A stretch of 64,000 bases of DNA, taken from contig JBJEGD010000026.1 of NCBI GenBank assembly GCA_051874735.1, forward strand, positions 91,452 through 155,451. The letters run 5' to 3'. The position numbers and the translations under genes were made by a program. How positions within the stretch are numbered: the stretch's first letter is position 1; each line of letters starts with the position of its first letter. Shown piece after piece: positions 4,201-50,597 of the stretch. The stretch is from Candidatus Bruticola sp. (GTDB lineage: Bacteria; Vulcanimicrobiota; Xenobia; Xenobiales; Xenobiaceae). A model generated the notes under the pieces. That model had not been told where the DNA came from and did no database searches. It saw only the letters and a list, made by a program, of their open reading frames with translations.

Positions 4201-4445
4201 ATAAAGGAGCGGTTGCAGATGCTGCTGACAGCAACGATCCTAATTTAGGTTCAGCTATAGTGGTAGAAGAAGCTTCGAAAACTAATTTAGCTAGTAAACT
4301 AAATGATGAAGAGTTTACAACTCATAAAGGCGATTTATTGTCTGAAAATCAAGACAGCCGCTCTAAAGCTAGTCCTGGAGCTTTGGAGACTGACGGAGGT
4401 CTGAAACTCGATAATTCTTTGTCTGGAGCTAAGGCTGAGCAATAA
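1206..4445 (+). CDS. Fused mannose-1-phosphate guanylyltransferase / phosphomannomutase-like protein (1079 aa). It has an N-terminal NTP-transferase domain, a left-handed beta-helix, an alpha-D-phosphohexomutase-like domain and an acidic C-terminal extension of about 250 aa.
   Basis: N-terminus MKAVIMAGGEGTRLRPLT is the sugar-nucleotidyltransferase G-loop. Hexapeptide repeats lie mid-protein. The phosphohexomutase Mg-loop GIIMDADAER is present. A Shine-Dalgarno AGAGGTG lies upstream. Confidence 0.8.
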   Translation: MNFMKAVIMAGGEGTRLRPLTVSRPKPMVPVCNRPVMEYTIDLLKRYGIETVVVTLHYKAEDIISYFGDGTDFGLKIVYSIETSPMGTAGSVKQIQDIVGDDTFLVISGDGLTDIDLGRAVAFHKEKRATATLVLMRVNNPLEYGVVITDKNNAIERFLEKPSWGEVFSDQVNTGIYILEPEIFNLMEKGQSYDFSRDIFPKLLEQKKGLYGYVASGYWCDIGDIDHYAAAHRDMFDGKVLQEMVGTQRADGVWIGEGTKIDPTAILEAPLMIGRNCRIGAHTYVSSYTCIGDNCIIEEDVNLQRDIIFNNVFIGGKSNCVGAIICRQCTIKPGVSLNDSSVIGENVFIGRGASVRSQISIWPDKNIPDGLTISENLVWGKKNSETLFGRDSIIGLGNLEITPEFAMKLGAAFGTLLPKESTVTVSRDSRPVSRLINRAIISGLSSVGVNTLDLRLLPAAVSRYLVSRTKSVGGIHTRVYRDESRLVEIEFFDELGINIDKIRQRKVENSFIRQDFRRTDVDEVGIISYMDASIDKYIEGFISCLDTRSIKNANFKVVIDYSYGTACQVLPFILNKLGVETVSINAYVDYDKAREAQAKKDDALRQLSNIVKPVGADLGIIMDADAERIYLVDEEGSPIKGTNLLALLALMVFRHSKDALVAVPISVPGIMEKLAQQQHGKIIRTKTDYRSIMHSAFVSEGRIALAGTSSGAFVFPKFSPGFDAMFLLAEMLEMMAFDKRKLSEIAKVIPPHYSLSGSVECNWSEKAKVMRLLVERYRDEKLELLDGVRIDFDDDSSVLMVPHPSLARINVWTDASSKERAKALMERARFVIPQLANADENALLKERKEDDNHNLISPTTIIPEERAFHFWVPGRYLGVQVRSLRSFIDVLHYIETASLEYHMERNDFANWLRTELGRYLVALDLEQISKARYKGEELRCHILECFGEAASSESSNSVEHNDDFEETHFKINEDHHSQEVGGIRFMSDHVVNDIQKGHDKGAVADAADSNDPNLGSAIVVEEASKTNLASKLNDEEFTTHKGDLLSENQDSRSKASPGALETDGGLKLDNSLSGAKAEQ

Positions 4446-6507: not shown

Positions 6508-6605
6508 AACCTTCGTGTTAAGATGACAATTTGCCTTTTTTGAAACAGCTTTGTAAAGCCGCTGATGTTATTTTTTTCAGCTGGTTGACAGATAGGGGAA
6601 TTAAT

Positions 6606-8087
6606 ATGAATGCTGCTTATATTGAACGTCAGAGTCGAGCACCTATTTATGAAGCTTTAGAGGAATATATTCAAGAAGCGAATGTTCCTTTTCATATGCC
6701 TGGACATAGTCTGGGTAGAGGAGCTGATCCTTATTTGCAAAGTTTAATGGGAGCTAAGGCCTTAGCAGCAGATATCACTCAAGTGCTAGATATGGATGAT
6801 ATCCATCGTCCCTACAGCTACACTAAAAAAGCTCAAGAATTGGCAGCTGAATGTTTTGGAGCTGACAAAACTTGGTTTTTAGTGAATGGCTCTACTTGCG
6901 GTAATCAAGCTATGCTTTTGGCCTCTTTAAAAACTGGTCAGGAGGTTATTATGCCTCGCTGCGCTCACCGATCTCTGCAAGCTGGATTAGTTTTTTCTGG
7001 TGCGGTACCTCGTTATGTCTCTTCTCCGTACGATAAAGAAGCTGGGGTTAGTTTAGCAGTTGAATGCTCTGATATGGAGTACTTACAGCACAAATACCCT
7101 AATGTGATAGCTTGGGCTGTTACTAGTGTCACTCCTTATGGGGCCTGTGCTGATATCAACACTATAAGTACTGCAGCTCATAATCATGGACTGCCTCTTT
7201 TAGTCGATGAAGCTTGGGGCCCCCACTTCGGTTTTCATCCCGATTTGCCCCAGTCTGCTATTTCCCTGGGAGCAGACTGCTCAGTGCAGAGTGCTCATAA
7301 ACTTTTAGCCGCTCTTTCTCAGGCTTCTATGCTCCACATAAAAGGCAAAAGGCTCAATTATGAACGTTTTAACTTGACTTTGCGTATGCTGCAGAGCACT
7401 AGCCCCAACTATTTGCTTTTAGCTTCGTTAGATATTGCGCGCCGTCAGTTGGCTTTGCATGGCTATCAGGATTGGCAGAGAGCTTTAGATTCTGCTGAGA
7501 GAATACGTCAATTTGTGCGTCATACTGAGGGACTACAGCTTATGGAACAGGGAGCGGCTTTTAACTACGATAAAACCAGAATTGTAATTTCTGCTCTAGA
7601 TTTGGGTATAGATGGAGTCGAGTTAGAAAGAACGCTGCGTTATCGTTTTAAAATTCAGCCGGAAATGTCCGATATGCGCCAAATCGTTTTAGTTATTACG
7701 CCCGGACATACTTCTAAGGACTTAGATAAACTTGAAGCAGCTCTTAAAGAAATTGCCGAAGCTCCTCACGGCTGGGTTTCTGCTGAAGGGGTTAAAGCGC
7801 CACTGCGCAGAGCTGCTTCTTTAGACTTTCCTGGTTTTCCTGAACAGTTAATGAGTCCTCGTCAATCTTATTTTAGCTCTTCTAAATATGTGCCTTGGGA
7901 GCAAGCTTTAGGAGAGGTTTGCGCTGAATTGATCACTCCTTATCCGCCTGGTATTCCCTTAATATGTCCCGGGGAAAGAATTGAGCGTCCCCATTGGGAG
8001 TACTTAAAGGCTCTTAACAAGGCTGGAGTACCTATTGATGGGTTGAGTGATCTTTCTATGCATCAAGTTAGAGTTATAGTTGGATAA
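6606..8087 (+). CDS. Orn/Lys/Arg decarboxylase family PLP enzyme (YaaO/SpeA-like).
   Basis: FHMPGH motif near the N-terminus and size match the Orn/Lys/Arg decarboxylase major domain. The start was chosen at the internal ATG (MNAAYIERQ) rather than the track start at 6531. Confidence 0.75.
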   Translation: MNAAYIERQSRAPIYEALEEYIQEANVPFHMPGHSLGRGADPYLQSLMGAKALAADITQVLDMDDIHRPYSYTKKAQELAAECFGADKTWFLVNGSTCGNQAMLLASLKTGQEVIMPRCAHRSLQAGLVFSGAVPRYVSSPYDKEAGVSLAVECSDMEYLQHKYPNVIAWAVTSVTPYGACADINTISTAAHNHGLPLLVDEAWGPHFGFHPDLPQSAISLGADCSVQSAHKLLAALSQASMLHIKGKRLNYERFNLTLRMLQSTSPNYLLLASLDIARRQLALHGYQDWQRALDSAERIRQFVRHTEGLQLMEQGAAFNYDKTRIVISALDLGIDGVELERTLRYRFKIQPEMSDMRQIVLVITPGHTSKDLDKLEAALKEIAEAPHGWVSAEGVKAPLRRAASLDFPGFPEQLMSPRQSYFSSSKYVPWEQALGEVCAELITPYPPGIPLICPGERIERPHWEYLKALNKAGVPIDGLSDLSMHQVRVIVG

Positions 8088-33688: not shown

Positions 33689-34402
33689 ATGGAACAGGGA
33701 CTCATACATACTAGCGCTTGTATTGATGTCTTCGCCTCTCTTGGAGAGGGATGCCGAGTCGGAGCTATGGCTGTTATTGAAAGTGGAGCCCAAATTGGCT
33801 GCGGAGCTGAAATCGGTCCTAAAGTTTATATCGGACGCAACGTTTCTATCGGTGAAAGAGCTGTTATAAAGTGCGGTGCTGTTATTATGGATGGCGTTGT
33901 TGTTGGCAGAGAAGCGGTAGTCGAGTCGGGGGCTGTTTTGGGAATGGATGGCTTTGGATATGTTTTTGACGGACAAAGCCATCGTAAAATTCAGCAAATA
34001 GGCAATGTTGTCATTGGGCAGGGAGCGAAAATTGGCGCTTGTTCCTGTATAGACAGGGCCGCTTCTGCTTCAACGGTCGTTGGCGATCATACTGAAATAG
34101 GTCATATGGTGATGGTCGGTCATAACAGCAAGATTGGCAGCGGGTGTCGCATTGGTGATCAGAGCGGTTTAACTGGTTCCTCTCTGGTCGGTAACGATTG
34201 TATCATCGGCTCTCAGTGTGGTATAGGTGTGCGTGTTGAACTTGGCGATGGCTGTGTGTTGCTAGATCGAGCCACGGCTATGCGCAAATATGAGCCTGGG
34301 CAGGTTCTGGCCGGACATCCAGGACGACCGGTGGCGGAGGTTCGCCGTGCAGAAGCGGCTTTTAATTTGCTGCCTAAACTTTTAAAAGATTATATTGAGT
34401 AG
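33689..34402 (+). CDS. LpxD-like UDP-3-O-acyl-glucosamine N-acyltransferase lacking the N-terminal uridine-binding domain. It has only the left-handed beta-helix and the C-terminal helix.
   Basis: Begins exactly where the beta-helix of canonical LpxD begins. Has the GFGY motif and the catalytic GHN His. Only 237 aa versus about 330–340. Confidence 0.65.
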   Translation: MEQGLIHTSACIDVFASLGEGCRVGAMAVIESGAQIGCGAEIGPKVYIGRNVSIGERAVIKCGAVIMDGVVVGREAVVESGAVLGMDGFGYVFDGQSHRKIQQIGNVVIGQGAKIGACSCIDRAASASTVVGDHTEIGHMVMVGHNSKIGSGCRIGDQSGLTGSSLVGNDCIIGSQCGIGVRVELGDGCVLLDRATAMRKYEPGQVLAGHPGRPVAEVRRAEAAFNLLPKLLKDYIE

Positions 34403-34613: not shown

Positions 34614-36458
34614 ATGAGAAAATATAATTTATGGGCCTTAATTTTGGCTTTTGTAGTCTTTTATTCCGCTGCTCTGTCATCTGCCTGGGCTGCTGATGTA
34701 ATGCTGGGAGGCCAGGTTATCTTTCGTATAAATGATGAGGATCAAGCAAAAAAAATATCCCAAAAAATTGAAGCTATGTTGCAGAGGGGGGCTTCTTCGT
34801 CTTCAATTAAAGTCGTACGTAAAGATATTGCTGTAGCCTCGGAGGGGCAAGATAAGCAAGATAAAGATGAAGGTAGCAAGGGAGGGGCTAAAGCGAAAAA
34901 ATCTGTTTATAAAATATTTTGGGGAAGTGAATTAGTCATTGAAGTGAATGACGAAATTGCCAAGCAGAATGCTTCTTCTCCAGAAGCTTTAGCTAATTTA
35001 TGGGCCTCCAATATGCGCAATGTCGTCGATATTGGCCTGTTGAATGTTGATGTTGCTAGAGTCGTTTTACCTATAGAGGCTGATAAGGTTATTTACGCTT
35101 CTGGTTTGGCAACCGGTCCTTTGAGTGCTGAAGAGACTTCAGGTATCGTTGATATTGATATCGATCAGGAAAACGGCCTTATTAAGATAAAAGGGCGCAG
35201 GGTTGGAAAGTCGTCTATCGTTATTAGCAAAGGGGTTGCCTCCGTTTCCGTTTTTGTGCAGGTGAAAGATTGGGCCGGCAAACTTCCTCAGACGGTTAAT
35301 GTTGAAGTAACTGGCAATCCTGCACAGATTGATGACGTTTCCCAGGCGGTTATGCTTTCCATAGCGGCTAATACTTTCGTTCAGCCAGGCTGCAGTGTTT
35401 ATGTTGATGATTCCAACTTTAAACCGATTCCGGTGAGTAAAGGCGACAGTATGCGCTTAAGCGTGCCTGTGGGTATAAATGCTTCGGAAGATTATTTTGC
35501 GCTTCGCGGCAATGTTAATGTTGTAGTTAGCAATATAGAAGCTCCTGTAGTTGAGCAGAATCTGCTTCTAGTCAGCAATCGGCCGGAGCGTGTCAGCACA
35601 GATGGAGTATTAATGAAGTATAACTTCAAGAGACGTGAGCCCAGTCGTCTTATGTTCTCCCATCTTAATGCTTCCGAAAAGAATCGTTATTTGTGGATAA
35701 ATTTAGCTAATTTAAATGACGAACCGATAAAGATTGTTATCAGTCGCACTTCTGCTGGACCTGAGCGCAGCGAAATTTATGTCGGCCAAACGGCTGCCAA
35801 GCGCTTTTTAGAAAATTTGGCCAGTCGTTCCGGCTATATCATTACTCTTCCGCCCAATTCTGCTTTAGAGCTCTGTTCTTATGTGATGCGTCCTGAAGCT
35901 TTGGTAAGTGGATTTATAAATTTCCAAATTTTGGAAGGTACTAGCGCGACCGTTGAAGTGCGCAGTTCATTAAATCCTAATGCTAACGATGGACGTCCTC
36001 TGCCAGAAATAGGGGCCCCTTTTAATCCTTTCAAAATACATCCTCACGGAGTTTTTGCTCAGCCTTATTTTGAAAATGAAGGTGAATTTGTTATAGGTGG
36101 CAGTCCTTTAACTTTTCGTTATGGTGAGAGTCCTTGGCTGATTGATTTTGAAACTGGGCTGCCCAACACTGGCAATTTCGGGGTTTTGTATAAATCTTTG
36201 GTAGAATTAAAAAATCCTACTAAGCGTACAAAAACTGTGGGACTTTACTTTACGCCTTTGTCCGGCCCTGGCGGTGCTAACTTCCTGATAGGCAATTCTG
36301 TTTATCAGGCAGTTTTCCGCAAAAAAGGTGATGAAGTACTTGTAGCTAAAATCGAACTCTCGCCAGAGTCTAGCAGTATAATTGAAATTGTCACTTTACC
36401 TGAGGCGACTTCCTGTTATCCTGCCCAGTATGAATTGCGTGAACTGGACGGGCGCTGA
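34614..36458 (+). CDS. Large secreted protein of unknown function (614 aa) embedded in the lipid A cluster.
   Basis: Clear signal peptide MRKYNLWALILAFVVFYSAALSSAWA. No recognisable domain. Confidence 0.6.
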   Translation: MRKYNLWALILAFVVFYSAALSSAWAADVMLGGQVIFRINDEDQAKKISQKIEAMLQRGASSSSIKVVRKDIAVASEGQDKQDKDEGSKGGAKAKKSVYKIFWGSELVIEVNDEIAKQNASSPEALANLWASNMRNVVDIGLLNVDVARVVLPIEADKVIYASGLATGPLSAEETSGIVDIDIDQENGLIKIKGRRVGKSSIVISKGVASVSVFVQVKDWAGKLPQTVNVEVTGNPAQIDDVSQAVMLSIAANTFVQPGCSVYVDDSNFKPIPVSKGDSMRLSVPVGINASEDYFALRGNVNVVVSNIEAPVVEQNLLLVSNRPERVSTDGVLMKYNFKRREPSRLMFSHLNASEKNRYLWINLANLNDEPIKIVISRTSAGPERSEIYVGQTAAKRFLENLASRSGYIITLPPNSALELCSYVMRPEALVSGFINFQILEGTSATVEVRSSLNPNANDGRPLPEIGAPFNPFKIHPHGVFAQPYFENEGEFVIGGSPLTFRYGESPWLIDFETGLPNTGNFGVLYKSLVELKNPTKRTKTVGLYFTPLSGPGGANFLIGNSVYQAVFRKKGDEVLVAKIELSPESSSIIEIVTLPEATSCYPAQYELRELDGR

Positions 36459-36660: not shown

Positions 36661-37500
36661 ATGTGCAGAGCGCAGCGTACTTTGGCGAAAGAAGTTTCCT
36701 TCGAAGGAGTAGGGATTCATACTGGGAGAGCGAGTCACCTAACTATTAAGCCGGCTCCTGTCGATCACGGTCTCGTTTTTCTTAGTTCTGGAGAGTATAT
36801 CCCTGCTACCTATGAGTACGTTATTTCTACAAAGCGCTCTACAACGATTGGTAAGGGACAGGTCGCGGTAAATACTATCGAGCATTTAATGGCCGCTTTT
36901 GGAGGTCTTTCTGTGGATAATGCTCTTATAGAGATAGAAGGGCCGGAAGTTCCTATTTTAGACGGTTCTGCTTTGCCTTTTTGTCAGGCTATGGAAGAAG
37001 CAGGTATAGTTAATATCAAAGGCAGTGAAGTAGAAGATTATTATCTGAGCGAGCCCATTTTTGCTGCAGAAGGGGACAGTTTAGTTTTGGCTATGCCCGA
37101 TTCCCAATATAATCTTGAAGGAGCTGTCAGCTACAACAGTCCTCAAGTAGGTATTCAGCGATATCGTTACTGCGGATATGACAACTTTGTGACTCATATA
37201 GCTCCTGCTCGTACTTTTGGTTTTTGGTCTGAGGTAAAAACTCTCTTAGAAAACGGATTAGGGCAAGGTGGCGATCTGTCTAATGCTTTAATTTATGATC
37301 GTCCTGGTTTTAATGCTGCAGAAAATCAGCGTTTTGTCAATGAACCGGTGCGTCACAAAATTTTAGATTTAGCTGGTGATATTTGTCTGTTAGGTCGTCC
37401 GCTGTGTGCTTTTGTTTTGGCCGTTCGGGCTGGTCATAAATTGCATGTAGAATTCGTTCGCAAAATCGCTGAGGAGATGAAAAAAAATGCTGAATACTAA
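36661..37500 (+). CDS. lpxC: UDP-3-O-acyl-N-acetylglucosamine deacetylase.
   Basis: N-terminal QRTL…GVGIHTG and a C-terminal HKxLD…G motif. Size 279 aa. Confidence 0.9.
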   Translation: MCRAQRTLAKEVSFEGVGIHTGRASHLTIKPAPVDHGLVFLSSGEYIPATYEYVISTKRSTTIGKGQVAVNTIEHLMAAFGGLSVDNALIEIEGPEVPILDGSALPFCQAMEEAGIVNIKGSEVEDYYLSEPIFAAEGDSLVLAMPDSQYNLEGAVSYNSPQVGIQRYRYCGYDNFVTHIAPARTFGFWSEVKTLLENGLGQGGDLSNALIYDRPGFNAAENQRFVNEPVRHKILDLAGDICLLGRPLCAFVLAVRAGHKLHVEFVRKIAEEMKKNAEY

Positions 37501-37912
37501 AGATATATTGCACAGGATTAATTACAAAAGTCCTCTTTTTTTTGTTGATATTGTTAACGAGTTAGAGTTTCCTAAAATCTCTGGTTATAAAAATGTGACT
37601 ATGAGCGAGCCCCATTTCGCTGGACATTTCCCAGGCAAACCCATTATGCCTGGAGTACTACAAATGGAAGCTTTGGTACAGATTTGCCGACTTCTCTATA
37701 TAGGGAATGAAGAGGCTCCTATTAAAGTAAAAGAGCTCGATTTAGTTGGAGTTAAAAAATTTAAGTTTAGAACTCCTGTTGTTCCAGGAGATCGCCTCGA
37801 TCTTTATGCTGAAGAAATTGAGCGTAACAACGAAAATATAGTGCTATCTGTTAAAGCTTGCGTTGGAGATAATGTCGCTTGTGAAGGAATACTTTCTTTC
37901 AGTTGGCAATAA
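37487..37912 (+). CDS. fabZ: 3-hydroxyacyl-ACP dehydratase FabZ.
   Basis: Hot-dog fold motifs HFAGHFPGKPIMPGVL. Overlaps the lpxC stop by 14 nt. Confidence 0.9.
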   Translation: MLNTKDILHRINYKSPLFFVDIVNELEFPKISGYKNVTMSEPHFAGHFPGKPIMPGVLQMEALVQICRLLYIGNEEAPIKVKELDLVGVKKFKFRTPVVPGDRLDLYAEEIERNNENIVLSVKACVGDNVACEGILSFSWQ

Positions 37913-38028
37913 AAGGCGAACGCACGACCGTTTGCGGCTAGCTGTAGGAAATTTGCCATATACAGACGAAATTATAAACCGTTTTGTGTTCGCTTTTGCA
38001 TAGAGACAAAAATTGGAGGATAAGCATT

Positions 38029-38967
38029 ATGAAGCCGATTAAAGTTGGCGTGGTCGGCATTGGTAGTATGGGGAAAAACCATGCTCGAGTGTGCGCCGAA
38101 CTACCTCAAATTGAACTTACAGGCATGGTGGATCTCGATGAAGCCAGAGTCGCCCCTTTAGCTCAGCAGTACGGCACACAGTATTATAAAGATTATAAGA
38201 GTCTCTATGGCAAAATCGACGCTGTAGTTATTGTTGCACCTACACCGCTTCACTATCAAATCGCTCAAGATTTTTTGGAACAGGGCGTTCATGTCTTGGT
38301 AGAAAAGCCCATTACTGTAGAGGTAAGCGAGGCTAAACGGTTAGTGACTTCCGCTAAGGAAAAAAATCTTGTTCTGCAGGTAGGTCATTTGGAGCGTTTC
38401 AATCCAGCCGTAATAAAGCTTAAGCAGATGGTGAGCAAACCTGTGTTAATAGAATGCCACCGCCTTTCTGGGCCTACTACTCGCAGTCTCGATGTCGGTA
38501 TTATTTGGGATTTAATGATCCACGATTTTGATATACTTCTCAGTTTATATAAATCTCCAGTAGCCGAAATCCATGCTATGGGGACTTCTATCTATTCTAA
38601 ATTTGAAGATGTAGCTCACGTGCAAATGCGGTTTGAATGTGGGGCTGTAGCCAGTTTGGTAGCTAGTCGCAATTCCGGAGAAAGGAAGCGCAGTCTCAAA
38701 ATTACTGAAGATACCGGACGAGTTTTGTCTCTCGATTTTATTAACCAAACTTTAGTTATTTCTCGTCCTGGCCCCGATGGGCGTCCCCTAGATTTGGAGC
38801 CAGTTCACATCGAGAAAGAGGAACCTCTACGTTTGGAACTCAGCAATTTTGCAGATTGTGTGATTAATCACAAGGAACCTGTTGTATCCGGTGAGGATGG
38901 CAAGCGAGCTTTGGAATTAGCTGTTCACGTTTTGGAGAATATGCAAAAAATTACGCTTTCTAAGTAA
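38029..38967 (+). CDS. Gfo/Idh/MocA-family NAD(P)-dependent oxidoreductase. GnnA-like position between fabZ and lpxA.
   Basis: MKPIKVGVVGIGSMGKNHA Rossmann N-terminus and a C-terminal Gfo/Idh/MocA domain. Start set at the ATG after GGAGG. Confidence 0.75.
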   Translation: MKPIKVGVVGIGSMGKNHARVCAELPQIELTGMVDLDEARVAPLAQQYGTQYYKDYKSLYGKIDAVVIVAPTPLHYQIAQDFLEQGVHVLVEKPITVEVSEAKRLVTSAKEKNLVLQVGHLERFNPAVIKLKQMVSKPVLIECHRLSGPTTRSLDVGIIWDLMIHDFDILLSLYKSPVAEIHAMGTSIYSKFEDVAHVQMRFECGAVASLVASRNSGERKRSLKITEDTGRVLSLDFINQTLVISRPGPDGRPLDLEPVHIEKEEPLRLELSNFADCVINHKEPVVSGEDGKRALELAVHVLENMQKITLSK

Positions 38968-39017: not shown

Positions 39018-39827
39018 GTGATTCATTCCAGCGCTATAGTACATCCCGGGGCACGCATCGGTGAGGGAGTAGAAATCGGACCTTTTTCTATTATCGGAGA
39101 AAATGTAGAAATTGGAGACGGAACTAAAATTATGTCTTCTGTCGTCATAGATGGATGGACAACTATAGGCAAAAATAACAAAATTTATCCGGGTGTATCT
39201 ATTGGTCTGGCACCTCAGGATTTCAGTTATAAAGGGCAGCGTTCATTTGTAACTATTGGTGATAATAATGAGTTCCGTGAATATGTGACTATTCATAGGG
39301 CTGCCGATGAAGATGGTATTACTTCTGTGGGTAGCGGCAATCTGCTTATGGCGAATGTACACATCGCTCATAACTGCCATATTGGTAGTCAAATTACTAT
39401 GGCTAATTATGCTGGTTTGGCTGGTCATACTGTAGTAGAAGATCAGGCGGTATTAGGTGGGCTTGTAGGTATCCATCAGCACACCCGCATCGGTCGTTTG
39501 TGTATGGTAGGCGGATGCTCCAAGATAAATAAAGATTTGCCGCCCTTCAGTATTGTCGATGGTAATCCTTGTCGTCTCTTTGGTATGAATTTCCGAGGCA
39601 TGCGGCGCCGTGACATTTCTAAGGAAAGTCGTTTAGCTGTTCATAAAGCTATCAATATTTTGGGCAGTTGTGGACTGACCTTAGACGCCGCTATAGAACG
39701 CATAGACAGTGAGTTGGAGCATACCCCTGAAATTGAACATTTCCTGACTTTCCTGCGCGGTGATTCTCATATGGGAGTTCTCAATAAAGCCGGCAACGTA
39801 GGGGCGAGAGCTCACAGTAACGCTTAA
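39018..39827 (+). CDS. lpxA: Acyl-ACP–UDP-GlcNAc (or GlcNAc3N) O-acyltransferase LpxA.
   Basis: Hexapeptide-repeat N-terminus SSAIVHPGARIGEGVEIGPFSIIG and the typical C-terminal helical domain. Confidence 0.9.
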   Translation: MIHSSAIVHPGARIGEGVEIGPFSIIGENVEIGDGTKIMSSVVIDGWTTIGKNNKIYPGVSIGLAPQDFSYKGQRSFVTIGDNNEFREYVTIHRAADEDGITSVGSGNLLMANVHIAHNCHIGSQITMANYAGLAGHTVVEDQAVLGGLVGIHQHTRIGRLCMVGGCSKINKDLPPFSIVDGNPCRLFGMNFRGMRRRDISKESRLAVHKAINILGSCGLTLDAAIERIDSELEHTPEIEHFLTFLRGDSHMGVLNKAGNVGARAHSNA

Positions 39828-39838
39828 TTGGTGCAGCT

Positions 39839-42286
39839 TTGACTGAAAATAGTCAGCAACAATCATCTGCTTATCCTCAGTTGACGGTTGCGATAATCGC
39901 CATAGAGCCTTCTGCCGATCTTCATGGAAGCAATTTGGCTAGGGCTCTTTTGGCGATTAATCCGCATCTAAAACTGGTCGGCGTAGGCGGATCGCATATG
40001 GCCGCGTCGGGAGTCAGTCTGTGGTTAAGGACCACAGACATGGCAGTTATTGGTCCCGGCGGGGCTATTGCTCGTTTGCCTAAATATATATGTTACTATT
40101 TGTACGTGCGCAGGCATTTGCTTAAGGAACATCCTCACCTCAGCATTTTAATAGACTGCCCCGCCGTTAACATGCGTTATGCTGGTCTTTTGACTCGCTA
40201 TGGCTATCATTCTGTTTATTACTTTCCCCCTTCTGCCTGGACAACCAGCGAAGTGCGTCTTAGACAGATTTTTAGCCGCACAGATAGGGTAATTTGTACC
40301 TTCTTGAGCAATGCCGAAAATTATCGCCGTCTGGGTATGGATGTAGATTTCTTCGGCCATCCTCTTATCGATATGCCCGAGTTAGGAATTTCTGCAGAAG
40401 AAGCTAAAAACAAGTTGGGGCTGGTAGGCGAAAATATTTTGGCTTTACTTCCGGGCAGTCGTGCTTCAGAAATAAAGTATCTATTGCCGATTTTTTTAGA
40501 AATAGTTGCTAAGTTGCATCAAGAAATAGAAAATTTGCAGGTACTTGTACCTTGTGCAACTCAGGCGCTTCGCAGGCAAATAGTTGCCTATATGGGGGAT
40601 AGGTTCCCTTATGTGCGTGTTTTAAATGGGCAGTCTCGTTTAGCCCTTTTAGCTTGTCGAGCAGCGTTGATGAGCTCTGGCACAGCTAGCCTGGAAGCTG
40701 CGATATTAGGCGCCCCAATGGTTCTGTCTTATAAACTTTGTCCCTTCGATGCTGTTATAGGTAAGTTCCTGATTTGGAGTGGTTTATTAAAAATTGAGCA
40801 TATCGGGTTGCCCAGTTTGGTCGCTGGACATCGCATTGTTCCAGAGTTTGTTCAAGATGAAGTTTCACCTGAAAATATTATCCCTCATTTGCGCAATTTT
40901 ATGCGAGATACTCCTGAGCGGTGCCAAATAAAACAAGATCTTTTAGATATGAGGAAGTCCATGGGCGCTCCTGGAGTAATTACCAAGATAGCCTCTTCTT
41001 TATATAGTCGCATTGAGAGCAGTGCTGCTGAAAGGATGGCTGAACCTTTCGACATTGTTATAACATCTAATTCTCCTGGAGAGGTGTCCACGTGGGTGCG
41101 ACGCACTGTTGCTCAGTTGGAGGTTAAAAACAAAGGGCAGTTTAGAGTTATAGTAGCGTTAGTTCCATGTCCTTATGCTTCCGGAGCTGAAGCTGAAGTC
41201 GCCGCTTCTCTGCCAGGCGTTTCCATTGTTCTGACGCCTAGTCAGACTGTGCGTTTAATGTGCGGCATGTTCAACGATTTTGAGCTGCGTAAAAAGGGAG
41301 TAGTAGTATTTTTAGGCGGTGATCTTATTCACGCTAAAATTTTGGCTTGGCGTTTAAAATATCGCTCTATAGCCTATGCAGCTAGATACAACAGGCTAAT
41401 CTACTATTTTGATAAAGTCGCTGCTTCAGATATTTCACTGGCCTCTGAATTATTAGAAGCTGGAGTTAATGAAGTTGTTAATATAGGTAATTTAAGTATT
41501 GATGGGGTTATTTCTGAAGTTGATAGGGAAGCAGCTGATAAAGTATCCCGTAGAACTGGCTTGAAGATTGGCATTTTCCCAGGATCGCGTTTTCTGCATA
41601 CTAAGATCGCTCTAGGAGTGTTTTTGCGTGTAGCTGCTCTAATAAAAACGCGTCACCCTGAGGTTGAATTTGTCCTTTCTGTATCGCCTTTTCTTTCCCC
41701 AGCTCGGCTGGAATCGGCACTTTGTAATCCTTTTAGTTTGGGGCTTCCGGTAGCTAAGGGTAAATTGCTCAGTGCTGATCGCATTGCAGTTGAGTGTATG
41801 TATGAAGATGAACAGGCTGCAGGACGCAGTTTTGAAGTTGAAGTTTTGTGGGGCCATCCTTATCAAGCTATTGCAGAAATAGATATGGCACTTACCATTC
41901 CGGGAACGAATACTGGAGAGTTGGGGTGTTGCGGCAAACCTATGGTAGTAGGACTTTCTGCTGATGCTTCCCTGCCCAGAGGAGGTTTGGGCGGCTTATT
42001 TGAAAGGATGCCAGTTTTATCAAAACTTAAGAGTTATTTGCGCTTGCGTTCTTATGCGCGTCACGGTTTCGCTGCGATCCCTAACCGTATTGCTTCTAGA
42101 GCTATCGTTCCTGAAGTTTTAGTAAAAAAAGATACGTCTGTGCTGGCCCAGCCTATTTTAGAGTGGATTGAAACTCCTGAGAAGTACGCCCGTGTTTCCC
42201 AAGATTTAAAAGACACTATGAGAACGACAGAGGGAGCGGGCAAGCGCATGGCTGAGTTGATCCTGGGTTTGGTTGATTCTAAATAA
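39839..42286 (+). CDS. lpxB: Lipid-A-disaccharide synthase fused in tandem to a second GT19 (LpxB-like) domain (815 aa).
   Basis: Residues 1 to about 390 carry the LpxB motifs LLPGSR and SSGTASLEAAILGAPMVLSY. Residues about 400–815 repeat them as IFPGSR and IPGTNTGELGCCGKPMVVGL. Confidence 0.8.
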   Translation: MTENSQQQSSAYPQLTVAIIAIEPSADLHGSNLARALLAINPHLKLVGVGGSHMAASGVSLWLRTTDMAVIGPGGAIARLPKYICYYLYVRRHLLKEHPHLSILIDCPAVNMRYAGLLTRYGYHSVYYFPPSAWTTSEVRLRQIFSRTDRVICTFLSNAENYRRLGMDVDFFGHPLIDMPELGISAEEAKNKLGLVGENILALLPGSRASEIKYLLPIFLEIVAKLHQEIENLQVLVPCATQALRRQIVAYMGDRFPYVRVLNGQSRLALLACRAALMSSGTASLEAAILGAPMVLSYKLCPFDAVIGKFLIWSGLLKIEHIGLPSLVAGHRIVPEFVQDEVSPENIIPHLRNFMRDTPERCQIKQDLLDMRKSMGAPGVITKIASSLYSRIESSAAERMAEPFDIVITSNSPGEVSTWVRRTVAQLEVKNKGQFRVIVALVPCPYASGAEAEVAASLPGVSIVLTPSQTVRLMCGMFNDFELRKKGVVVFLGGDLIHAKILAWRLKYRSIAYAARYNRLIYYFDKVAASDISLASELLEAGVNEVVNIGNLSIDGVISEVDREAADKVSRRTGLKIGIFPGSRFLHTKIALGVFLRVAALIKTRHPEVEFVLSVSPFLSPARLESALCNPFSLGLPVAKGKLLSADRIAVECMYEDEQAAGRSFEVEVLWGHPYQAIAEIDMALTIPGTNTGELGCCGKPMVVGLSADASLPRGGLGGLFERMPVLSKLKSYLRLRSYARHGFAAIPNRIASRAIVPEVLVKKDTSVLAQPILEWIETPEKYARVSQDLKDTMRTTEGAGKRMAELILGLVDSK

Positions 42287-42356
42287 TATGAAAATTCCTA
42301 ATGAAAATTGCCAAAATATTGCTACTCCTTTTATTTTCAAGTGGCGAGGCTTGATT

Positions 42357-42941
42357 ATGGCAGTAGTGACGGCTATCATACTGGCTGCTGCCAAGCCAAC
42401 TTTAGTTACCTGCTGCTGGGGAATTGGCTTTGTACTTTTAGGAGAGCTGTTGCGTTCATGGGCTTTGGGCTGGACTGGAGAACATACACGTAGTCAGGAA
42501 TTAATGGCGTCTTTTTTAGTTACTGGCGGTCCTTATAAATACATACGCAATCCACTGTACTTAGGCAATATTTTAAACGGATTTGGGGTTATGGTTGCTG
42601 CTTCTGGAGCTATGTCGTATTTGGGAACGGCTGCTTTGTGGGCTTTTGGTCTTCTATCTCTTTATATGGTTTATGCTTCATGTATAATCGCTGAAGAAGC
42701 TTTCTTGGCTATGCGTTTTGGTGATCTCTTCTTCCGCTACAGAGCAGTTACGCCGACCATTGTACCGCGTTGGGGAGATTATCTCGATTTTATAAGCAGT
42801 TTTTTCAATTTCTCTTCCTGTACAGATGTTCAATATGAAGGGAGAGGCTTCTTCTCTTGGCAATCTTTAAAATTTGAATATAGTACTTGGGGATGGATAA
42901 TTGCTGTTTGGTCTTGTTTATTTATAAAAGCTTTCATGTAA
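42357..42941 (+). CDS. ICMT/PEMT-family membrane methyltransferase-like protein (LmtA-like candidate).
   Basis: Multi-transmembrane protein with an RNPLYLG motif of the isoprenylcysteine carboxyl methyltransferase family. Start chosen at the ATG 7 nt after GAGG. The track start at 42273 overlaps lpxB. Confidence 0.5.
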   Translation: MAVVTAIILAAAKPTLVTCCWGIGFVLLGELLRSWALGWTGEHTRSQELMASFLVTGGPYKYIRNPLYLGNILNGFGVMVAASGAMSYLGTAALWAFGLLSLYMVYASCIIAEEAFLAMRFGDLFFRYRAVTPTIVPRWGDYLDFISSFFNFSSCTDVQYEGRGFFSWQSLKFEYSTWGWIIAVWSCLFIKAFM

Positions 42942-43026: not shown

Positions 43027-44232
43027 TTAAGGCCGCATGGAAATCTCGGTTAAAATTTGAGCCATGCGGGCTGCTCCTCCGGGAGGGCCTAGTCTCTCTT
43101 GGCCGATAGATCCGCGCCGTTGCCGATCAGCTTTGTCTTGCATTAGGCGACATAGAGTTTCGATTATATCGGGATCGTAATCTTCACAAACAATAAGAGC
43201 CTCACCGAGCAGCCCCTTTTGTCTGGCCCTATACCACTTTAAACGAGTCTCTCCGCCTGGTTCATAAGCAACAACAGGAATACCGTGACCAGCCGCTTGT
43301 TCATGTGCTGTGCCCGCCAATCCTAGAGCGACTTGACTGTATTTTAGTACATCAGCTAGATGGCCTTTGATAAGAAAGAACTGAACTTGATACTCCGCCT
43401 TGTTGTCTGCAAGTTTAAGTTCGCTCCAACCCGGATAAGGTGCTTCGTTCATAACAAAACCCGGACAGGCCTGTGCTAACTTTGAGGTATCAATAGATGG
43501 AGCTACGGCAATAAAGGCACAAATTTTCTTATTTAAGCGTTGAGACAGCTGGCAACTTATTTCTAAAAGGCGAGGCAGTACCCTGTAAGTAGCTTGTCTG
43601 CTGCCGGGAAAGAGAGCTAGGCCTATTTCTTTGCTGCTGTCTAGACTGAAGTCCAGTTCTTGAGGAACCAAACCATCCATCATAGCATTACCTACCCAGA
43701 TAGCTTTAACTCCTTTTTGACGCAGACTGGCAGCTGTAGGTTCATCTCGGACAATAGAGCGAACTTTGAAAGTTCTCAGAACCCAAGCTTCTAGAGCTGA
43801 GTAAGGATGATGATAGTCAGATTTAGCCGTGCCAATGAAGGTTATTGGGCGTATACCAGATAGGGCAGCTAGAATAACTGGCCAAAGATCGCCGACAGCG
43901 GCAATGTGATTGAAACGGTGACGATTTGAGCGCAGCCAAAACAGCTGTTTTAAAGTTAAATAGGCTAAGCCGCCGCCAAGATCTTTCCAAAAATTACGCC
44001 AATCTTCTTGAATAAGGCCGCCGCTGGGCATGTCGCTGACAGGGCCGTTTATGGGAGCTATTCCTTTGTACGCTGAGCCTTCTCCAACCAAAGGTAAAGC
44101 TTCTATATCGATTGATTTAGGCAGCTCCTTAATTATCTGGGCAGCTATGGAATCTTCACCGGCTCCGTTAGATACAAGTAAAAGGCGTTGAGGGGCGGGC
44201 ATAATCTCTCCTTTTAAGTTTTTTAGCAGCAA
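43027..44232 (-). CDS. GT19-family lipid-A-disaccharide-synthase-related glycosyltransferase (third LpxB-like domain in the window).
   Basis: LALFPGSR motif and ALGLAGTAHEQAAGHGIPVVAY, equivalent to the LpxB ASGTA…PMVV block. Confidence 0.6.
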   Translation of the reverse strand: MLLKNLKGEIMPAPQRLLLVSNGAGEDSIAAQIIKELPKSIDIEALPLVGEGSAYKGIAPINGPVSDMPSGGLIQEDWRNFWKDLGGGLAYLTLKQLFWLRSNRHRFNHIAAVGDLWPVILAALSGIRPITFIGTAKSDYHHPYSALEAWVLRTFKVRSIVRDEPTAASLRQKGVKAIWVGNAMMDGLVPQELDFSLDSSKEIGLALFPGSRQATYRVLPRLLEISCQLSQRLNKKICAFIAVAPSIDTSKLAQACPGFVMNEAPYPGWSELKLADNKAEYQVQFFLIKGHLADVLKYSQVALGLAGTAHEQAAGHGIPVVAYEPGGETRLKWYRARQKGLLGEALIVCEDYDPDIIETLCRLMQDKADRQRRGSIGQERLGPPGGAARMAQILTEISMRP

Positions 44233-44234
44233 AT

Positions 44235-45080
44235 TTAAGCTAAACTTATCAACTTACAGTGACTTAGCTGTGGATTATCCATATTGTATTCAATTTCATT
44301 TATATGTTTGGCGAATGCACCAGTTTGTACAATAAAAGAACCATTAACTTGACAAGGTGAGTCCAGTTGGGTATGGGTATGGCCTCCTAAAATCCAGGTG
44401 CCTGGCGGCGTATTAACCGCCAATTGCTGATCTCGGTCAAAACCTATGTGACTGATGATAACTAAATTAGTTCTTAGACCTAATTTAGCTGAGCAGCGAT
44501 CAGCTATCTGAGGCAAAGTTGTCTCTGCTTTGAAAAAACGAAAACCAAATATTTTTTCCCATATGGCATTATGAGGGTATTGCACCGGCATGGCTGATAA
44601 AATCAGCAAGGCACAATTTGAGCTCCAAGAGCTGTTAAAAAGCGCCAGACCGGGAATCCAGCGCTCTGAGGATAGTTCTTGCCAGGCCGAGGAGTTACGC
44701 CAGTTAGCAGAACTGCAGTCTATTATTGGTATATCTTGAATTTGCTCGACAAATTCGCGCTGAGTTAAATGACCACTAAGACGTATATCAGACAAATTAG
44801 TACAGATAAGCGGAAAAGAACGCTGTCTAGCTCTTTTGTCTAGAATACGCCTTTGATAATTGAACTCTCGATTGCCCATAGCCATGGCTGCGCAGCCGAC
44901 AGAACTCATTTTATCTAAGTTTGGTTCAAAGTTTTTCCATACTGTGTTAGAACCGATTAGAGCGTCGCCGCTGTCAAAATAAAGGGCTTGACCTGCGGCT
45001 ATAGAGGCCTGGGCCTGGCTTTTGAGCCAAGCCAAAGCCTCGCTGCGTCCGTGCATATCGTTGGTATGATAAATAATCAT
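44235..45080 (-). CDS. Calcineurin-like metallophosphoesterase. Candidate UDP-2,3-diacylglucosamine hydrolase analog.
   Basis: Metallophosphoesterase motifs DMHG, DSGD, GNREF and GGHTH. Positioned between lpxD and the LpxB-like gene. Confidence 0.6.
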   Translation of the reverse strand: MIIYHTNDMHGRSEALAWLKSQAQASIAAGQALYFDSGDALIGSNTVWKNFEPNLDKMSSVGCAAMAMGNREFNYQRRILDKRARQRSFPLICTNLSDIRLSGHLTQREFVEQIQDIPIIDCSSANWRNSSAWQELSSERWIPGLALFNSSWSSNCALLILSAMPVQYPHNAIWEKIFGFRFFKAETTLPQIADRCSAKLGLRTNLVIISHIGFDRDQQLAVNTPPGTWILGGHTHTQLDSPCQVNGSFIVQTGAFAKHINEIEYNMDNPQLSHCKLISLA

Positions 45081-45105: not shown

Positions 45106-45678
45106 TCAATTTTTGCTTCGCTGGGAAACTTTTGAGCTTCTTTCCTGAGCTACTTCGGTATAGACTTGACGGTAGCGATCTATTCCTATATATCTACAAA
45201 TTACTATACCGTAACCTATTATCCAACCGACTCCAGCTAGAGAAGCACCACCCAAACATACCCCTAATATTAAACCAATGCATCCGAAAATTAAACTGTT
45301 TAGCATAGGCTTAGAATCTAGTGATATTGAGTAACCTAAAGAAAGCCCAATAATAGCTCCCACTAGTCCGTAGTAACTACCTTTGCCTATATCTGCAGCC
45401 GTGGTTGCAATAGCCAAACTCGCTTTAGCTGCCTGCACAAGTGAATATTCAGACTGGCCAGCATCGATAATGGAGTTCGCTCCCCACAAGAATCCCATCA
45501 TCAGTCCCATGCCGGCGAAGCAGAGGCAGTACAAAGTCCTCTGTTGTTTGGTAAGAAAAGTTACAGACTGTTCTGTATTACTAGTCTTATTCGCGGTAGA
45601 CGATGAATTTTTTTTATCTTGCTTAGCGTTTTTCTTTTCTTTTTTTTTGCTGTCTTTGAGAGACGCCGGATCACTCAT
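45106..45678 (-). CDS. Membrane protein with a Lys-rich N-terminus and glycine-zipper transmembrane helices.
   Basis: Hydrophobic GxxxG-rich C-terminal half. In an operon with lpxD, with an 8-nt overlap. Confidence 0.45.
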   Translation of the reverse strand: MSDPASLKDSKKKEKKNAKQDKKNSSSTANKTSNTEQSVTFLTKQQRTLYCLCFAGMGLMMGFLWGANSIIDAGQSEYSLVQAAKASLAIATTAADIGKGSYYGLVGAIIGLSLGYSISLDSKPMLNSLIFGCIGLILGVCLGGASLAGVGWIIGYGIVICRYIGIDRYRQVYTEVAQERSSKVSQRSKN

Positions 45679-46654
45679 GTTTTTTATCTTTGTCCTTCAG
45701 AGATAATTTTGCCAATTTTTTTATTTGCTCCCATTTTTTTAAAGGAAGCTGACGCATCGCAATTTGGCGCATCGATACTTTATGTGCTTGAACGGGATCG
45801 CCGGACCACACTGACTGACCGGCTGGAATATCTTTATCCACGCCCGATCTAGCTGCTACTGTGGCAAAATCGCCGATATGACGCCCTTCTTTTACCAAGC
45901 ATTGGCCGGCGGCTATGGATAATTTTCCAATATAAGCTCTCTCCTGCAGACAGTTTTGAGAAATAATTATAGCCATAGGCTCTATAATAGATTCTTTGTT
46001 AATGCAGGCTAAATTGTCTATGCGCACTCCTTGATGAATAAGTGCTTTCCTGCCTATAAAGCAGCGAGCACCTATTTCAATATCACTTCCCAAAGAAGCT
46101 TCATCTTCGATAATGGTTAGCGGCCCTACTAAACTTGAACCTTCCAATTTTACTTTTTTCCCTAAAGAAACTCCGGGCATCAATTTAGTGTCAGCTCCTA
46201 CAAAGCTGTCGCTATCTATGCTGACATGAGCTTGAATTTGGCAGTTATCGCCAATGGTTACTCCATCTGCTATAACGGCAAAGGGGCCTATATAGGCTGT
46301 AGGAGATATGTTGGCAGAATCGCTTATGCAAGCACTTTCGTGTATCCCCGGCTTAAAGCGAAAAGGAGGATAATACAAATCGAGGAGCTTAGCATAGGCT
46401 ACTCGAGAATTTTTCACTAATATAGCCGGAATATTTGTTTGTATTTTTTCGGGTATAATTACTGCAGCAAAGCCGAGGTGCACTGCTTCTTGTAGTGAAC
46501 TTTCGTCTTCAGCGAAAGTAATTGCCGAGTTTAGATTGTGACTTAAAGCTGCGTCCATACCTGTGACTTCTTTTATAACCAGAGAAGCACTTTCCGGTAT
46601 GTTCAGACGACCTTCAAGATAATCGGCCAGCTCTTTTAAGTTCTTTACCACCAT
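45671..46654 (-). CDS. lpxD: Full-length UDP-3-O-acylglucosamine N-acyltransferase LpxD.
   Basis: N-terminal L.ELA..L.G domain, hexapeptide repeats with the catalytic His (LIHQGV), and a C-terminal helix. 327 aa. Confidence 0.85.
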   Translation of the reverse strand: MVVKNLKELADYLEGRLNIPESASLVIKEVTGMDAALSHNLNSAITFAEDESSLQEAVHLGFAAVIIPEKIQTNIPAILVKNSRVAYAKLLDLYYPPFRFKPGIHESACISDSANISPTAYIGPFAVIADGVTIGDNCQIQAHVSIDSDSFVGADTKLMPGVSLGKKVKLEGSSLVGPLTIIEDEASLGSDIEIGARCFIGRKALIHQGVRIDNLACINKESIIEPMAIIISQNCLQERAYIGKLSIAAGQCLVKEGRHIGDFATVAARSGVDKDIPAGQSVWSGDPVQAHKVSMRQIAMRQLPLKKWEQIKKLAKLSLKDKDKKHE

Positions 46655-48827: not shown

Positions 48828-50597
48828 TTAGAAAACGGCTGTACCTGGATCTGTTTTAGCTTGCTGGTAAAAATCTTGCCAGAGTTTTTTCTCATTGTTC
48901 ATGCGTTCAACGCTGACATTTTTACTCTTAATTTTTGCGACTATGTCTTGCCGACTGCGTTCTACTTCTTTGAAACGACCTGGTTTCCAAGCGTACTCGT
49001 CAAGATTGTATATATCGCGGTTGCGGTACTCTCCCACTTTATAAAGGACAGCGTAATTTTTTTCCATGTAGTACAAAGTTTCAAACGAAAAAGGATTAAG
49101 TTTGTTAGCTTTTTCGAAACACTGAGCTGCATCGTAGAAATAACTCTCTACAGGACGGTTTTTATCCTGAGCTTTATCGCCTTTGCGTAAGCGCTCGTAT
49201 CGGTATATACCCGCCCTTAAGTAACTTTGCCCTTGATTAAATTTAAATGAGGAATAAGTCCAGAAGCCAAGAGCGACAGCTATGATTAAAGGTCCTATCA
49301 CCAGAGCGAAGATGCTAGCTGCTTTATATGTGGCGGTGGAGTCTCCTTTGTCTTTGGGGGCATTACCGGACACAATGCGCTCTCTGGCAGCATAAAAATC
49401 TTGTTCTATAGTTTCTTTAGTTTTGGAAGCTAAAGCCCTTATTTTAGCTTCGTATCGGTTAGAAGCCATGATTTTTGTGCATATATCGGAGGCCGCTTCT
49501 AAAAAACCAGAGTGACCGATCTCTTCAGCCATTAACAGCCAATCCTCAGGATCGCTGCTGGTAATTTCGTGAATAACTTCACCTGGGCGAATGGAATCAT
49601 CTAGTTCCAACGCTTTGGAAAAATGGACTGCTGCTCTTTCTGGTTCGCCTATGGCCATAGAACATAGGCCTAAGCCATAGTGAGCATCAATATTATTAGG
49701 GAAGCGTTTCAGACTATTCTGAATATCAAAGTGCAGCTCTGAGAATTTTCCTTTGTCGAAAAGCTCAAGCTGTTCTTCCGTAAAAATATTGGCGATTTTG
49801 CGGGAAGTTACTGGAATTTTAGGAGTTGTCGACTGAGAGTTTTGCTCAGCTTCGACCTTTACTACATTTTGGGATACCGAAGGAGTTGCGGGCGGTACCG
49901 TAGGCTGCGAAGATAGCTGTGCTGACCTTTCTGTTGGTATATTCGCAGAGGTTGGGGCTGTCTGAGGATATCCCGGCTGCATAGGTCTGGGCTGGGGCGG
50001 TCTGCCTCCCGGTGTACCTGCGAGCACGGGAGCAGACTGAGGGTATCCCGTCTGCATAGGTCTGGGCTGGGGCGGTCTGCCTCCCGGTGTACCTGCGAGC
50101 ACGGGAGCAGACTGAGGGTATCCCGTCTGCATAGGTCTGGGCTGAGGCGGTCTGCCTCCTGGTGTACCTGCGGGCATGGGAGCAGACTGAGGATATCCCG
50201 TATGCGTAGGTCTGGGCTGAGGCGGTCTTCCTCCTGGTGTACCTGCGGGCATAGGAGCAGACTGAGGATATCCCGTCTGCATAGGTCTGGGCTGAGGCGG
50301 TCTTCCTCCTGGTGTACCTGCAGGCATGGGAGCAGACTGAGGATATCCCGTCTGCATAGGTCTGGGCTGAGGTAGTCTTCCTCCTGGCGTATTTAAAGGC
50401 ATGGGAGCAGACTGAGGGTGTCCCGGATGCATGGGGCTAGGCTGGGGGGGACGGGGAGTATAGCTTTGCCTTGATGAATACGGTTGAGATGTACTGGGAA
50501 TTGCAGTTTGAGCACTGAAATTATCCGCAGGAGTACCCTGGCTATCCTGCTGGTCTTGTAGTGTTAAATTGCTGCGCGGAGGCATTTGCATGCTCAC
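48828..50597 (-). CDS. Pro-rich tandem-repeat / TPR membrane protein (589 aa).
   Basis: Six near-identical 26-aa repeats, PMQTGYPQSAPMPAGTPGGRPPQPR, encoded by 78-bp DNA repeats at about 49975–50450. A TPR-like segment, one transmembrane helix and a C-terminal domain follow. Confidence 0.65.
   Translation of the reverse strand: MSMQMPPRSNLTLQDQQDSQGTPADNFSAQTAIPSTSQPYSSRQSYTPRPPQPSPMHPGHPQSAPMPLNTPGGRLPQPRPMQTGYPQSAPMPAGTPGGRPPQPRPMQTGYPQSAPMPAGTPGGRPPQPRPTHTGYPQSAPMPAGTPGGRPPQPRPMQTGYPQSAPVLAGTPGGRPPQPRPMQTGYPQSAPVLAGTPGGRPPQPRPMQPGYPQTAPTSANIPTERSAQLSSQPTVPPATPSVSQNVVKVEAEQNSQSTTPKIPVTSRKIANIFTEEQLELFDKGKFSELHFDIQNSLKRFPNNIDAHYGLGLCSMAIGEPERAAVHFSKALELDDSIRPGEVIHEITSSDPEDWLLMAEEIGHSGFLEAASDICTKIMASNRYEAKIRALASKTKETIEQDFYAARERIVSGNAPKDKGDSTATYKAASIFALVIGPLIIAVALGFWTYSSFKFNQGQSYLRAGIYRYERLRKGDKAQDKNRPVESYFYDAAQCFEKANKLNPFSFETLYYMEKNYAVLYKVGEYRNRDIYNLDEYAWKPGRFKEVERSRQDIVAKIKSKNVSVERMNNEKKLWQDFYQQAKTDPGTAVF

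Follow-up and report, generated by a model that had tools for sequence, protein, structure and literature searches.

The gene at 38029–38967 on the forward strand of the Candidatus Bruticola DNA analyzed here is, judged by its sequence and by its modeled fold, an orthologue of gnnA and not a generic sugar dehydrogenase gene, and its 312-aa product is predicted by homology to be an NAD-dependent UDP-GlcNAc 3-dehydrogenase. The gene lies inside a lipid A cluster, between fabZ and lpxA, and we consider it probable that the enzyme feeds the synthesis of a lipid A of the GlcN3N (2,3-diamino-2,3-dideoxyglucose) type by way of a gnnB gene encoded elsewhere. Below, the window means the whole 64-kb stretch of DNA that was analyzed. 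The host lineage belongs to class Xenobia of the phylum Vulcanimicrobiota (Eremiobacterota), for which we know of no lipid A structure. The phylum has one cultured member, Vulcanimicrobium alpinum. Its cell envelope is Gram-negative and includes an outer membrane (PMC9758169).

Results

An intact reading frame inside a lipid A cluster

The reading frame runs intact from an ATG at 38029 to a TAA at 38967 (+), and sequence inspection placed a GGAGGA ribosome-binding site at 38016–38021 (+), 7 nt 5′ of the start codon. Genes called independently on four Logan contigs yield exactly the same 312-aa product; a longer reading frame from a TTG at 37984 is not supported. In Pfam, this product has the two-domain Gfo/Idh/MocA architecture, with PF01408 (4.2e-31) accompanied by C-terminal PF22725 and PF02894. 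The GC content of the gene (0.44) matches that of the window (about 0.43), so there is no sign of recent transfer.

On the 5′ side lies fabZ (37487–37912, +; NF000582 at 113.7 bits against a cutoff of 113, and Pfam FabA), separated from gnnA by a 116-nt spacer (37913–38028, +) that corresponds to the slot occupied by gnnB, a DegT gene, in the relatives L084 and L103. On the 3′ side lies lpxA (39018–39827, +; NF003657 at 333 bits and TIGR01852 at 309 bits), whose product is the expected 3-position acyltransferase, whether O- or N-acylating. The reading frame, its Pfam domains, and the NCBIfam matches of the flanking genes together confirmed the initial annotation's placement of a Gfo/Idh/MocA gene between fabZ and lpxA.

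The wider cluster follows the order BamA, four Skp-like genes, a short lpxD, a gene of unknown function, lpxC (36661–37500, +; TIGR00325 at 224.8 bits, cutoff 187), fabZ, gnnA, lpxA, and lpxB. The gene between lpxD and lpxC encodes a conserved 614-aa protein (34614–36458, +) with no Pfam or NCBIfam match, and its homologues occupy the same position in L005–L008, L084, L086, L087, and L089. The lpxB gene (39839–42286, +; 815 aa, with TIGR00215 at 248.6 bits over residues 15–383) is a fusion whose second half resembles LpxB weakly; this C-terminal half gives a weak PF02684 match. In L005 and L007, each half has an ORF of its own. Beyond lpxB comes a PEMT/ICMT-type membrane methyltransferase (42273–42941, +; PF04191 and PF04140), which matches the Leptospira LmtA model weakly (TIGR04571 at 42.7 bits versus a cutoff of 325). 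The opposite strand then carries a lipid-A-disaccharide synthase-related gene (43027–44232, −; TIGR03492 at 273.7 bits, cutoff 219), a weak metallophosphoesterase (44235–45080, −; PF00149 at E 0.0013, below cutoff), and a second LpxD-like gene (45671–46654, −), with LptC/B/FG genes further on. The metallophosphoesterase is a candidate UDP-2,3-diacylglucosamine hydrolase, and Metallophos genes are found at the equivalent position in L084 and L085. No terminator-like site was found between fabZ and gnnA or between gnnA and lpxA, in a promoter and terminator scan that was otherwise at chance level, and gnnA is probably co-transcribed with both neighbors.

Sequence, fold, and phylogeny point to GnnA

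GnnA of Acidithiobacillus ferrooxidans (AfGnnA; PDB 7BVJ/7BVK) is reportedly a UDP-GlcNAc 3-dehydrogenase (Sweet et al. 2004, Manissorn et al. 2020). When the window protein was compared with the PDB, its best match was 7bvj/7bvk (166.8 bits, E 6.8e-48, residues 4–301), which the fold library names as the A. ferrooxidans UDP-N-acetylglucosamine 3-dehydrogenase GnnA, and the runner-up scored 82.8 bits. An AlphaFold2 model of the 312-aa protein (pLDDT 95, pTM 0.91) gave the same answer in Foldseek, superimposing on 7bvj/7bvk with a TM score of 0.90–0.94, an rmsd of 1.7–2.0 Å, and an E-value of 9e-34, about 7 orders better than that of the runner-up structure (E 2e-26, TM 0.82). The initial description of the protein as GnnA-like was thus borne out, AfGnnA being the best solved match in both sequence and fold as well as a member of the same clade, as described below.

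The top NCBIfam model was NF040723, the archaeal UDP-GlcNAc 3-dehydrogenase, which matched over the full length at 275.1 bits; the cutoff is 450 bits, so the window protein stands outside this equivalog. As a calibration, the characterized AfGnnA scored 163 bits against the same model, and other bacterial members of the clade scored 221–266 bits. The window protein reached the curated cutoff of none of the NCBIfam equivalogs.

Placing the protein phylogenetically relative to characterized GnnA, which the initial annotation had proposed, put it within the AfGnnA clade. In a neighbor-joining tree of 93 sequences, in which AfGnnA was the sole characterized GnnA, the window protein, AfGnnA, and every DegT-adjacent homologue formed one group, and a long branch set this group apart from two paralogues and from four further Gfo/Idh/MocA enzymes of solved structure. 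This group was recovered in 199 of 200 bootstraps (neighbor joining, Poisson distances, 38 taxa), and the phylum-level clade joining the window protein to that of L084, where a DegT gene is adjacent, in 200 of 200. A first bootstrap with Kimura-corrected distances had given only 7 of 100 for the GnnA clade; we set this value aside as an artefact of distance saturation, given the result obtained with Poisson distances.

The conserved residues are intact. Conservation in the clade reaches ≥93% at 57 positions, and the window protein retains all of them, with I158 for V as the sole conservative change; AfGnnA shares these positions. They include the EKP motif (92–94), D161/H165, and the clade-specific residues H120, R123, R145, M163, D166, S213, R214, and R221. 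By analogy with the Gfo/Idh/MocA family at large, the EKP lysine and the D-x3-H motif are presumed to be catalytic. An identical protein is on record from a MAG of Candidatus Bruticola sp. and a 98% identical one from PUUB49_bin.005, and comparison with a second Bruticola genome gave a dN/dS of 0.022 (dN 0.019, dS 0.85), which indicates that gnnA is maintained under strong purifying selection and is not decaying.

The window protein and AfGnnA, which are about 35% identical over their full length, share the two-domain fold, the clade, the clade-specific residues, and the association with lipid A genes. Unlike AfGnnA, the window protein comes from a phylum on the Terrabacteria side, is encoded between fabZ and lpxA with no adjoining gnnB, and has an activity that is predicted.

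The interval between fabZ and lpxA repeatedly houses gnnA, gnnB, or both

We examined the genomic context of the clade in two samples, one of 79 loci from species-representative genomes and one of 80 metagenome loci among the matches listed, the latter including one relative from the phylum, L103. A clade member lay within 3.5 kb of lpxA or lpxB at 55 of the 79 genome loci and at 41 of the 80 listed metagenome loci, so the adjacency of gnnA to lipid A genes invoked in the initial annotation holds as a general association with lpxA or lpxB across the clade. At 32 of the 79 genome loci, lpxI stood between lpxA and the clade gene. A DegT gene directly adjoined the clade gene at 20/79 genome loci and 17/80 listed metagenome loci, and 17 of the 79 genome members had neither an lpx gene nor a DegT gene nearby. 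The lpx-operon position of the clade gene is conserved in Eremiobacterota, Armatimonadota, Acidobacteriota, Aminicenantes, Desulfobacterota, Methylococcales, and diderm Firmicute-like lineages.

The slot itself varies in content. It reads fabZ-DegT-GnnA-lpxA in L084 and L103; fabZ-DegT-lpxA in L087–L090 and also in L099–L102, which belong to an unclassified lineage; and fabZ-GnnA-lpxA in the window, L005–L008, L086, and the Armatimonadota-labelled L085. A diderm Firmicute-like group (L091, L095, and L097) has the order lpxA-GnnA-DegT, and the data suggest that about six further contigs carry both DegT and GnnA genes. From this variety, we conclude that the fabZ–lpxA slot repeatedly holds one or the other gene of the GlcN3N route, or the two together, and that slots with a single gene are common. 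Two Gfo/Idh/MocA genes downstream in L099 were considered as GnnA and rejected, as they fall outside the GnnA clade.

The Eremiobacterota clusters L084 and L103 share the gene order of the window from BamA to LpxB, with GnnA 54% and LpxA 51% identical. They differ in having both a DegT gene in the slot and a normal full-length LpxD, and the window lineage has neither.

LpxA and two noncanonical LpxD homologues

The initial annotation had also pointed to two LpxD-type N-acyltransferases and had argued that an extra enzyme of this kind would be needed to acylate the additional amino group. Both reading frames are present and both encode LpxD homologues, but neither is a canonical LpxD. The first (33689–34402, +) encodes 237 aa that align with residues 101–318 of E. 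coli LpxD; it comprises the LbH core with the catalytic His and keeps the GHN and DGFGY motifs, and it lacks the N-terminal uridine-binding domain, the preceding Skp gene ending at 33688, one base before its start. It scored 193.6 bits against TIGR01853, below the cutoff of 242.5, and falls short of the full LpxD architecture. The second (45671–46654, −; 327 aa) has the N-domain, but it carries Lys at the position of the catalytic His (Arg in L008 and L005), and a 19-residue loop, DGFGY..KIPQ, is deleted. With neither the catalytic His nor the substrate loop, it scored 143.6 bits against the same 242.5-bit cutoff. Other clusters of the phylum have a single normal LpxD of 338–358 aa, and the pair in the window looks, from these alignments, like a split or subfunctionalized LpxD.

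As for LpxA, the enzyme itself reportedly N-acylates position 3 in GlcN3N organisms (Sweet et al. 2004). The nearest solved structure to the window LpxA is E. coli LpxA (227 bits), with L. interrogans LpxA at 182 bits; the window enzyme thus bears no particular resemblance to that of Leptospira, which is selective for GlcNAc3N, in scores that do not discriminate between acceptors. A passage of PMC4624066, citing Robins et al. 2009, states that LpxA forms the position-3 amide bond in GlcN3N organisms. On the strength of that passage, an extra N-acyltransferase is not required; for this reason, and because neither LpxD-like gene is canonical, the argument from two LpxD-type enzymes was wrong.

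The partner aminotransferase

The window contains no GnnB-like DegT aminotransferase, as the initial annotation had stated. A Pfam scan of all ORFs of ≥120 aa found none in the 64 kb, the sole DegT signal being a weak cross-match of an Orn/Lys/Arg decarboxylase at 6531–8087, and tblastn of 21 GnnB-type DegT proteins against the window returned nothing at E ≤ 1e-3. Nor was gnnB found in about 1.9 kb past the left edge of the window or, at five related loci of the gnnA-only type, in the 10 kb to either side. In the fabZ–gnnA spacers of the window and of the gnnA-only loci, tblastn at E ≤ 10 gave only chance-level matches and no gnnB remnant.

We then turned to targeted DegT searches, one seeded with the slot-type GnnB of the phylum and one with a profile of the Eremiobacterota-associated DegT clade, the latter returning mostly the same proteins as the former. 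No Bruticola-named DegT was among the best 120 of either search, whose listed matches reach down to about 51–52% identity, and among the DegT matches listed, none was assigned to any Xenobia-type GnnA contig. We regard this negative result as weak because the cluster proteins of the window lineage are themselves only 34–54% identical to those of L084, which places a GnnB of this lineage close to where the lists end. Five candidates for a Bruticola gnnB (P0134, P0140, P0145, P0149, and P0221) were rejected as belonging to other lineages, with contexts of lpxA-gnnA-gnnB or fabZ-gnnB-lpxA. The tetranucleotide correlation of L094 with the window was 0.60, versus ≥0.88 for true Bruticola contigs of at least 5 kb. 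One DegT clade among the listed matches was from Armatimonadota, so GnnB-clade DegTs are encoded in a phylum that shares the gnnA-only slot, a link made at the level of the phylum and not of the same genome. The PDB holds no characterized GnnB with which the cluster DegTs could be compared.

These results could mean that the dehydrogenase is active and that canonical gnnB was lost in this lineage, leaving a 3-oxo product outside the classical GlcN3N route. That product could then be aminated by a non-orthologous aminotransferase, epimerized or reduced at C3, or modified in some other way, and the lipid A could be of the ordinary GlcN-based kind or of a kind not yet described. The absence of DegT from the slot across the whole gnnA-only group, the spacers free of remnants, and the lack of a Bruticola DegT among the best 120 matches all fit such a loss, as does the rearrangement of LpxD in the same lineage, into a core that lacks the N-domain and a paralogue that lacks the catalytic His, which indicates that the early lipid A pathway has been remodeled here. 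We nevertheless consider the loss of gnnB unlikely, if worth keeping in mind. The DegT search was negative near its detection limit, Armatimonadota with the same gnnA-only slot encode GnnB-clade DegTs, and the mirror case, a slot with DegT alone, is common in the same phylum, which means that split locations of gnnA and gnnB are normal there. To our knowledge, no pathway uses UDP-3-oxo-GlcNAc without transamination. The two genes are also unlinked, and far apart, in Mesorhizobium loti, a documented organism with GlcN3N lipid A (PMC5644692, PMC7663294); unlike the window, where gnnA sits inside the lpx cluster, M. loti has both genes away from it.

An elaborated form of this account would have a Xenobia-type lineage, Bruticola included, lose canonical gnnB and keep gnnA under strong selection, split LpxD into a catalytic core that lacks the uridine-binding domain and a catalytically dead paralogue that bears it, and begin lipid A synthesis by an undescribed variant route in which a non-DegT enzyme aminates UDP-3-oxo-GlcNAc or the compound is put to some other use; we find this combination doubtful. 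We think it likely, in keeping with a gnnB encoded elsewhere, that a working aminotransferase exists in the host genome.

Discussion

In the pathway we favor, the GnnA-type enzyme would oxidize the 3-OH of UDP-GlcNAc with NAD+ to give UDP-3-oxo-GlcNAc, which a PLP-dependent aminotransferase (a GnnB-type DegT encoded outside the 64-kb window) would convert to UDP-GlcNAc3N. The adjoining LpxA would attach an acyl chain to the 3-amino group of this product, after which the usual steps of LpxC, LpxD, a hydrolase, and LpxB would yield a GlcN3N-containing disaccharide. In the lipid A so made, 2,3-diamino-2,3-dideoxyglucose would form all or part of the backbone, and the chains at position 3 would be amide-linked. 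The activity of the enzyme, the host aminotransferase, and the acceptor preference of LpxA enter this scheme as predictions, as does the lipid A structure.

A different role for the same reaction would be in a glycan other than lipid A, by analogy with archaeal and WbpB-type pathways. The dehydrogenase would supply 2,3-diacetamido sugars for an O-antigen, capsule, or S-layer, and its adjacency to lpxA would be incidental. The archaeal UDP-GlcNAc 3-dehydrogenase (NF040723, EC 1.1.1.374) catalyzes the same first reaction that is predicted for the window protein and works in a diacetamido-uronic acid pathway instead of in lipid A synthesis; its model being the best family match speaks for such a role, as do the clade members with neither an lpx gene nor a DegT gene nearby. 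Against it stand the conservation of the lpx-operon position across many phyla and the lack, next to the gene, of a UDP-GlcNAc 6-dehydrogenase, a WbpD-type N-acetyltransferase, or a set of glycosyltransferases, and we judge this role improbable. A third alternative is that the protein is not related to GnnA in particular and is a Gfo/Idh/MocA dehydrogenase of some sugar or of inositol whose gene lies by chance between fabZ and lpxA. This would suit its family-level Pfam domains, its scores below every equivalog cutoff, and its generic public annotation (NCBI gives only "Gfo/Idh/MocA family oxidoreductase"), but GnnA stands out as the match in fold and in sequence alike, the inositol dehydrogenase (IolG) model TIGR04380 scored 135.8 bits against a cutoff of 355, and the other Gfo/Idh/MocA structures are 22–27% identical and outside the clade, making this reading very improbable.

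The GnnA assignment extends a known family to a phylum in which it has until now carried a generic annotation, and it does not describe a new kind of system; apart from the lipid A prediction and the slot marker discussed below, it is a refinement of annotation and brings no new mechanism. The assignment predicts amide-linked position-3 chains in the lipid A of gut-associated diderms on the Terrabacteria side. In Campylobacter, loss of gnnA/gnnB leads to higher TLR4 activation and greater sensitivity to antimicrobial peptides (PMC8036547). The fabZ–lpxA slot, as a recurrent home of gnnA and/or gnnB in several phyla, offers a simple genomic marker for lipid A of the GlcN3N type.

LpxD and other genes of the lipid A cluster

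Judged by its domains and motifs, LpxD appears to be split between two proteins in the window: a 237-aa LbH core (33689-34402, plus strand), in which the catalytic His is present together with the DGFGY loop and the uridine-binding N-domain is missing, and a 327-aa paralogue (45671-46654, minus strand), which has the N-domain, carries Lys at the catalytic His position (Arg in L005 and L008) and is without the DGFGY loop. Other Eremiobacterota clusters, in contrast, have one normal LpxD each; the arrangement of two partial proteins is also seen in the fabZ-GnnA-lpxA loci L005 and L008. Between lpxD and lpxC lies a conserved protein (34614-36458, plus strand), found at that position in every Eremiobacterota cluster (the window, L084, L086, L087, and L089); these proteins, 584-684 aa long, gave no Pfam or NCBIfam match.

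The LpxB product is an 815-aa fusion (39839-42286, plus strand) of a bona fide LpxB and a weakly LpxB-like second half, and in L005 and L007 the counterparts of these halves are separate ORFs. Downstream, on the minus strand, are a third GT19-like gene (43027-44232, TIGR03492) and a 281-aa candidate metallophosphoesterase (44235-45080), recognized by a sub-threshold match only. Because neither LpxH nor LpxI was otherwise seen within the window's lipid A cluster, the latter is a possible LpxH/LpxG-type UDP-2,3-diacylglucosamine hydrolase.

Immediately 3' of lpxB is a PEMT/ICMT-type membrane methyltransferase gene (42273-42941, plus strand), and L005, L007, and L008 each have a counterpart in the equivalent place. 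In L085 and L086, adjacent genes of 590-638 aa have weak or faint PEMT matches, with a weak LpxB match as well in L085. Leptospira LmtA is a lipid A 1-phosphate O-methyltransferase; the window protein matched the LmtA model weakly (42.7 bits; cutoff 325).

The window also encodes a 589-aa protein (48828-50597, minus strand), in which some six proline-rich repeats in tandem (PQPRPMQTGYPQSAPMPAGTPGGRP) precede a TPR region, and a 1076-aa fusion (1215-4445, plus strand) of nucleotidyltransferase, LbH, and phosphoglucomutase/phosphomannomutase parts. In the lpxA-GnnA-DegT locus L095, separate phosphoglucomutase and nucleotidyltransferase genes lie downstream of gnnB.

gnnA clusters in other phyla

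The GnnA-clade genes of Acidobacteriota, Aminicenantes, and Desulfobacterota lie within fabZ-lpxA-lpxI-gnnA(-lpxB) clusters (L009, L011, L016, L019, and 28 further loci). Most of these have no DegT gene within 10 kb of the GnnA-clade gene, so whether gnnB is unlinked is a general question rather than one specific to the window.
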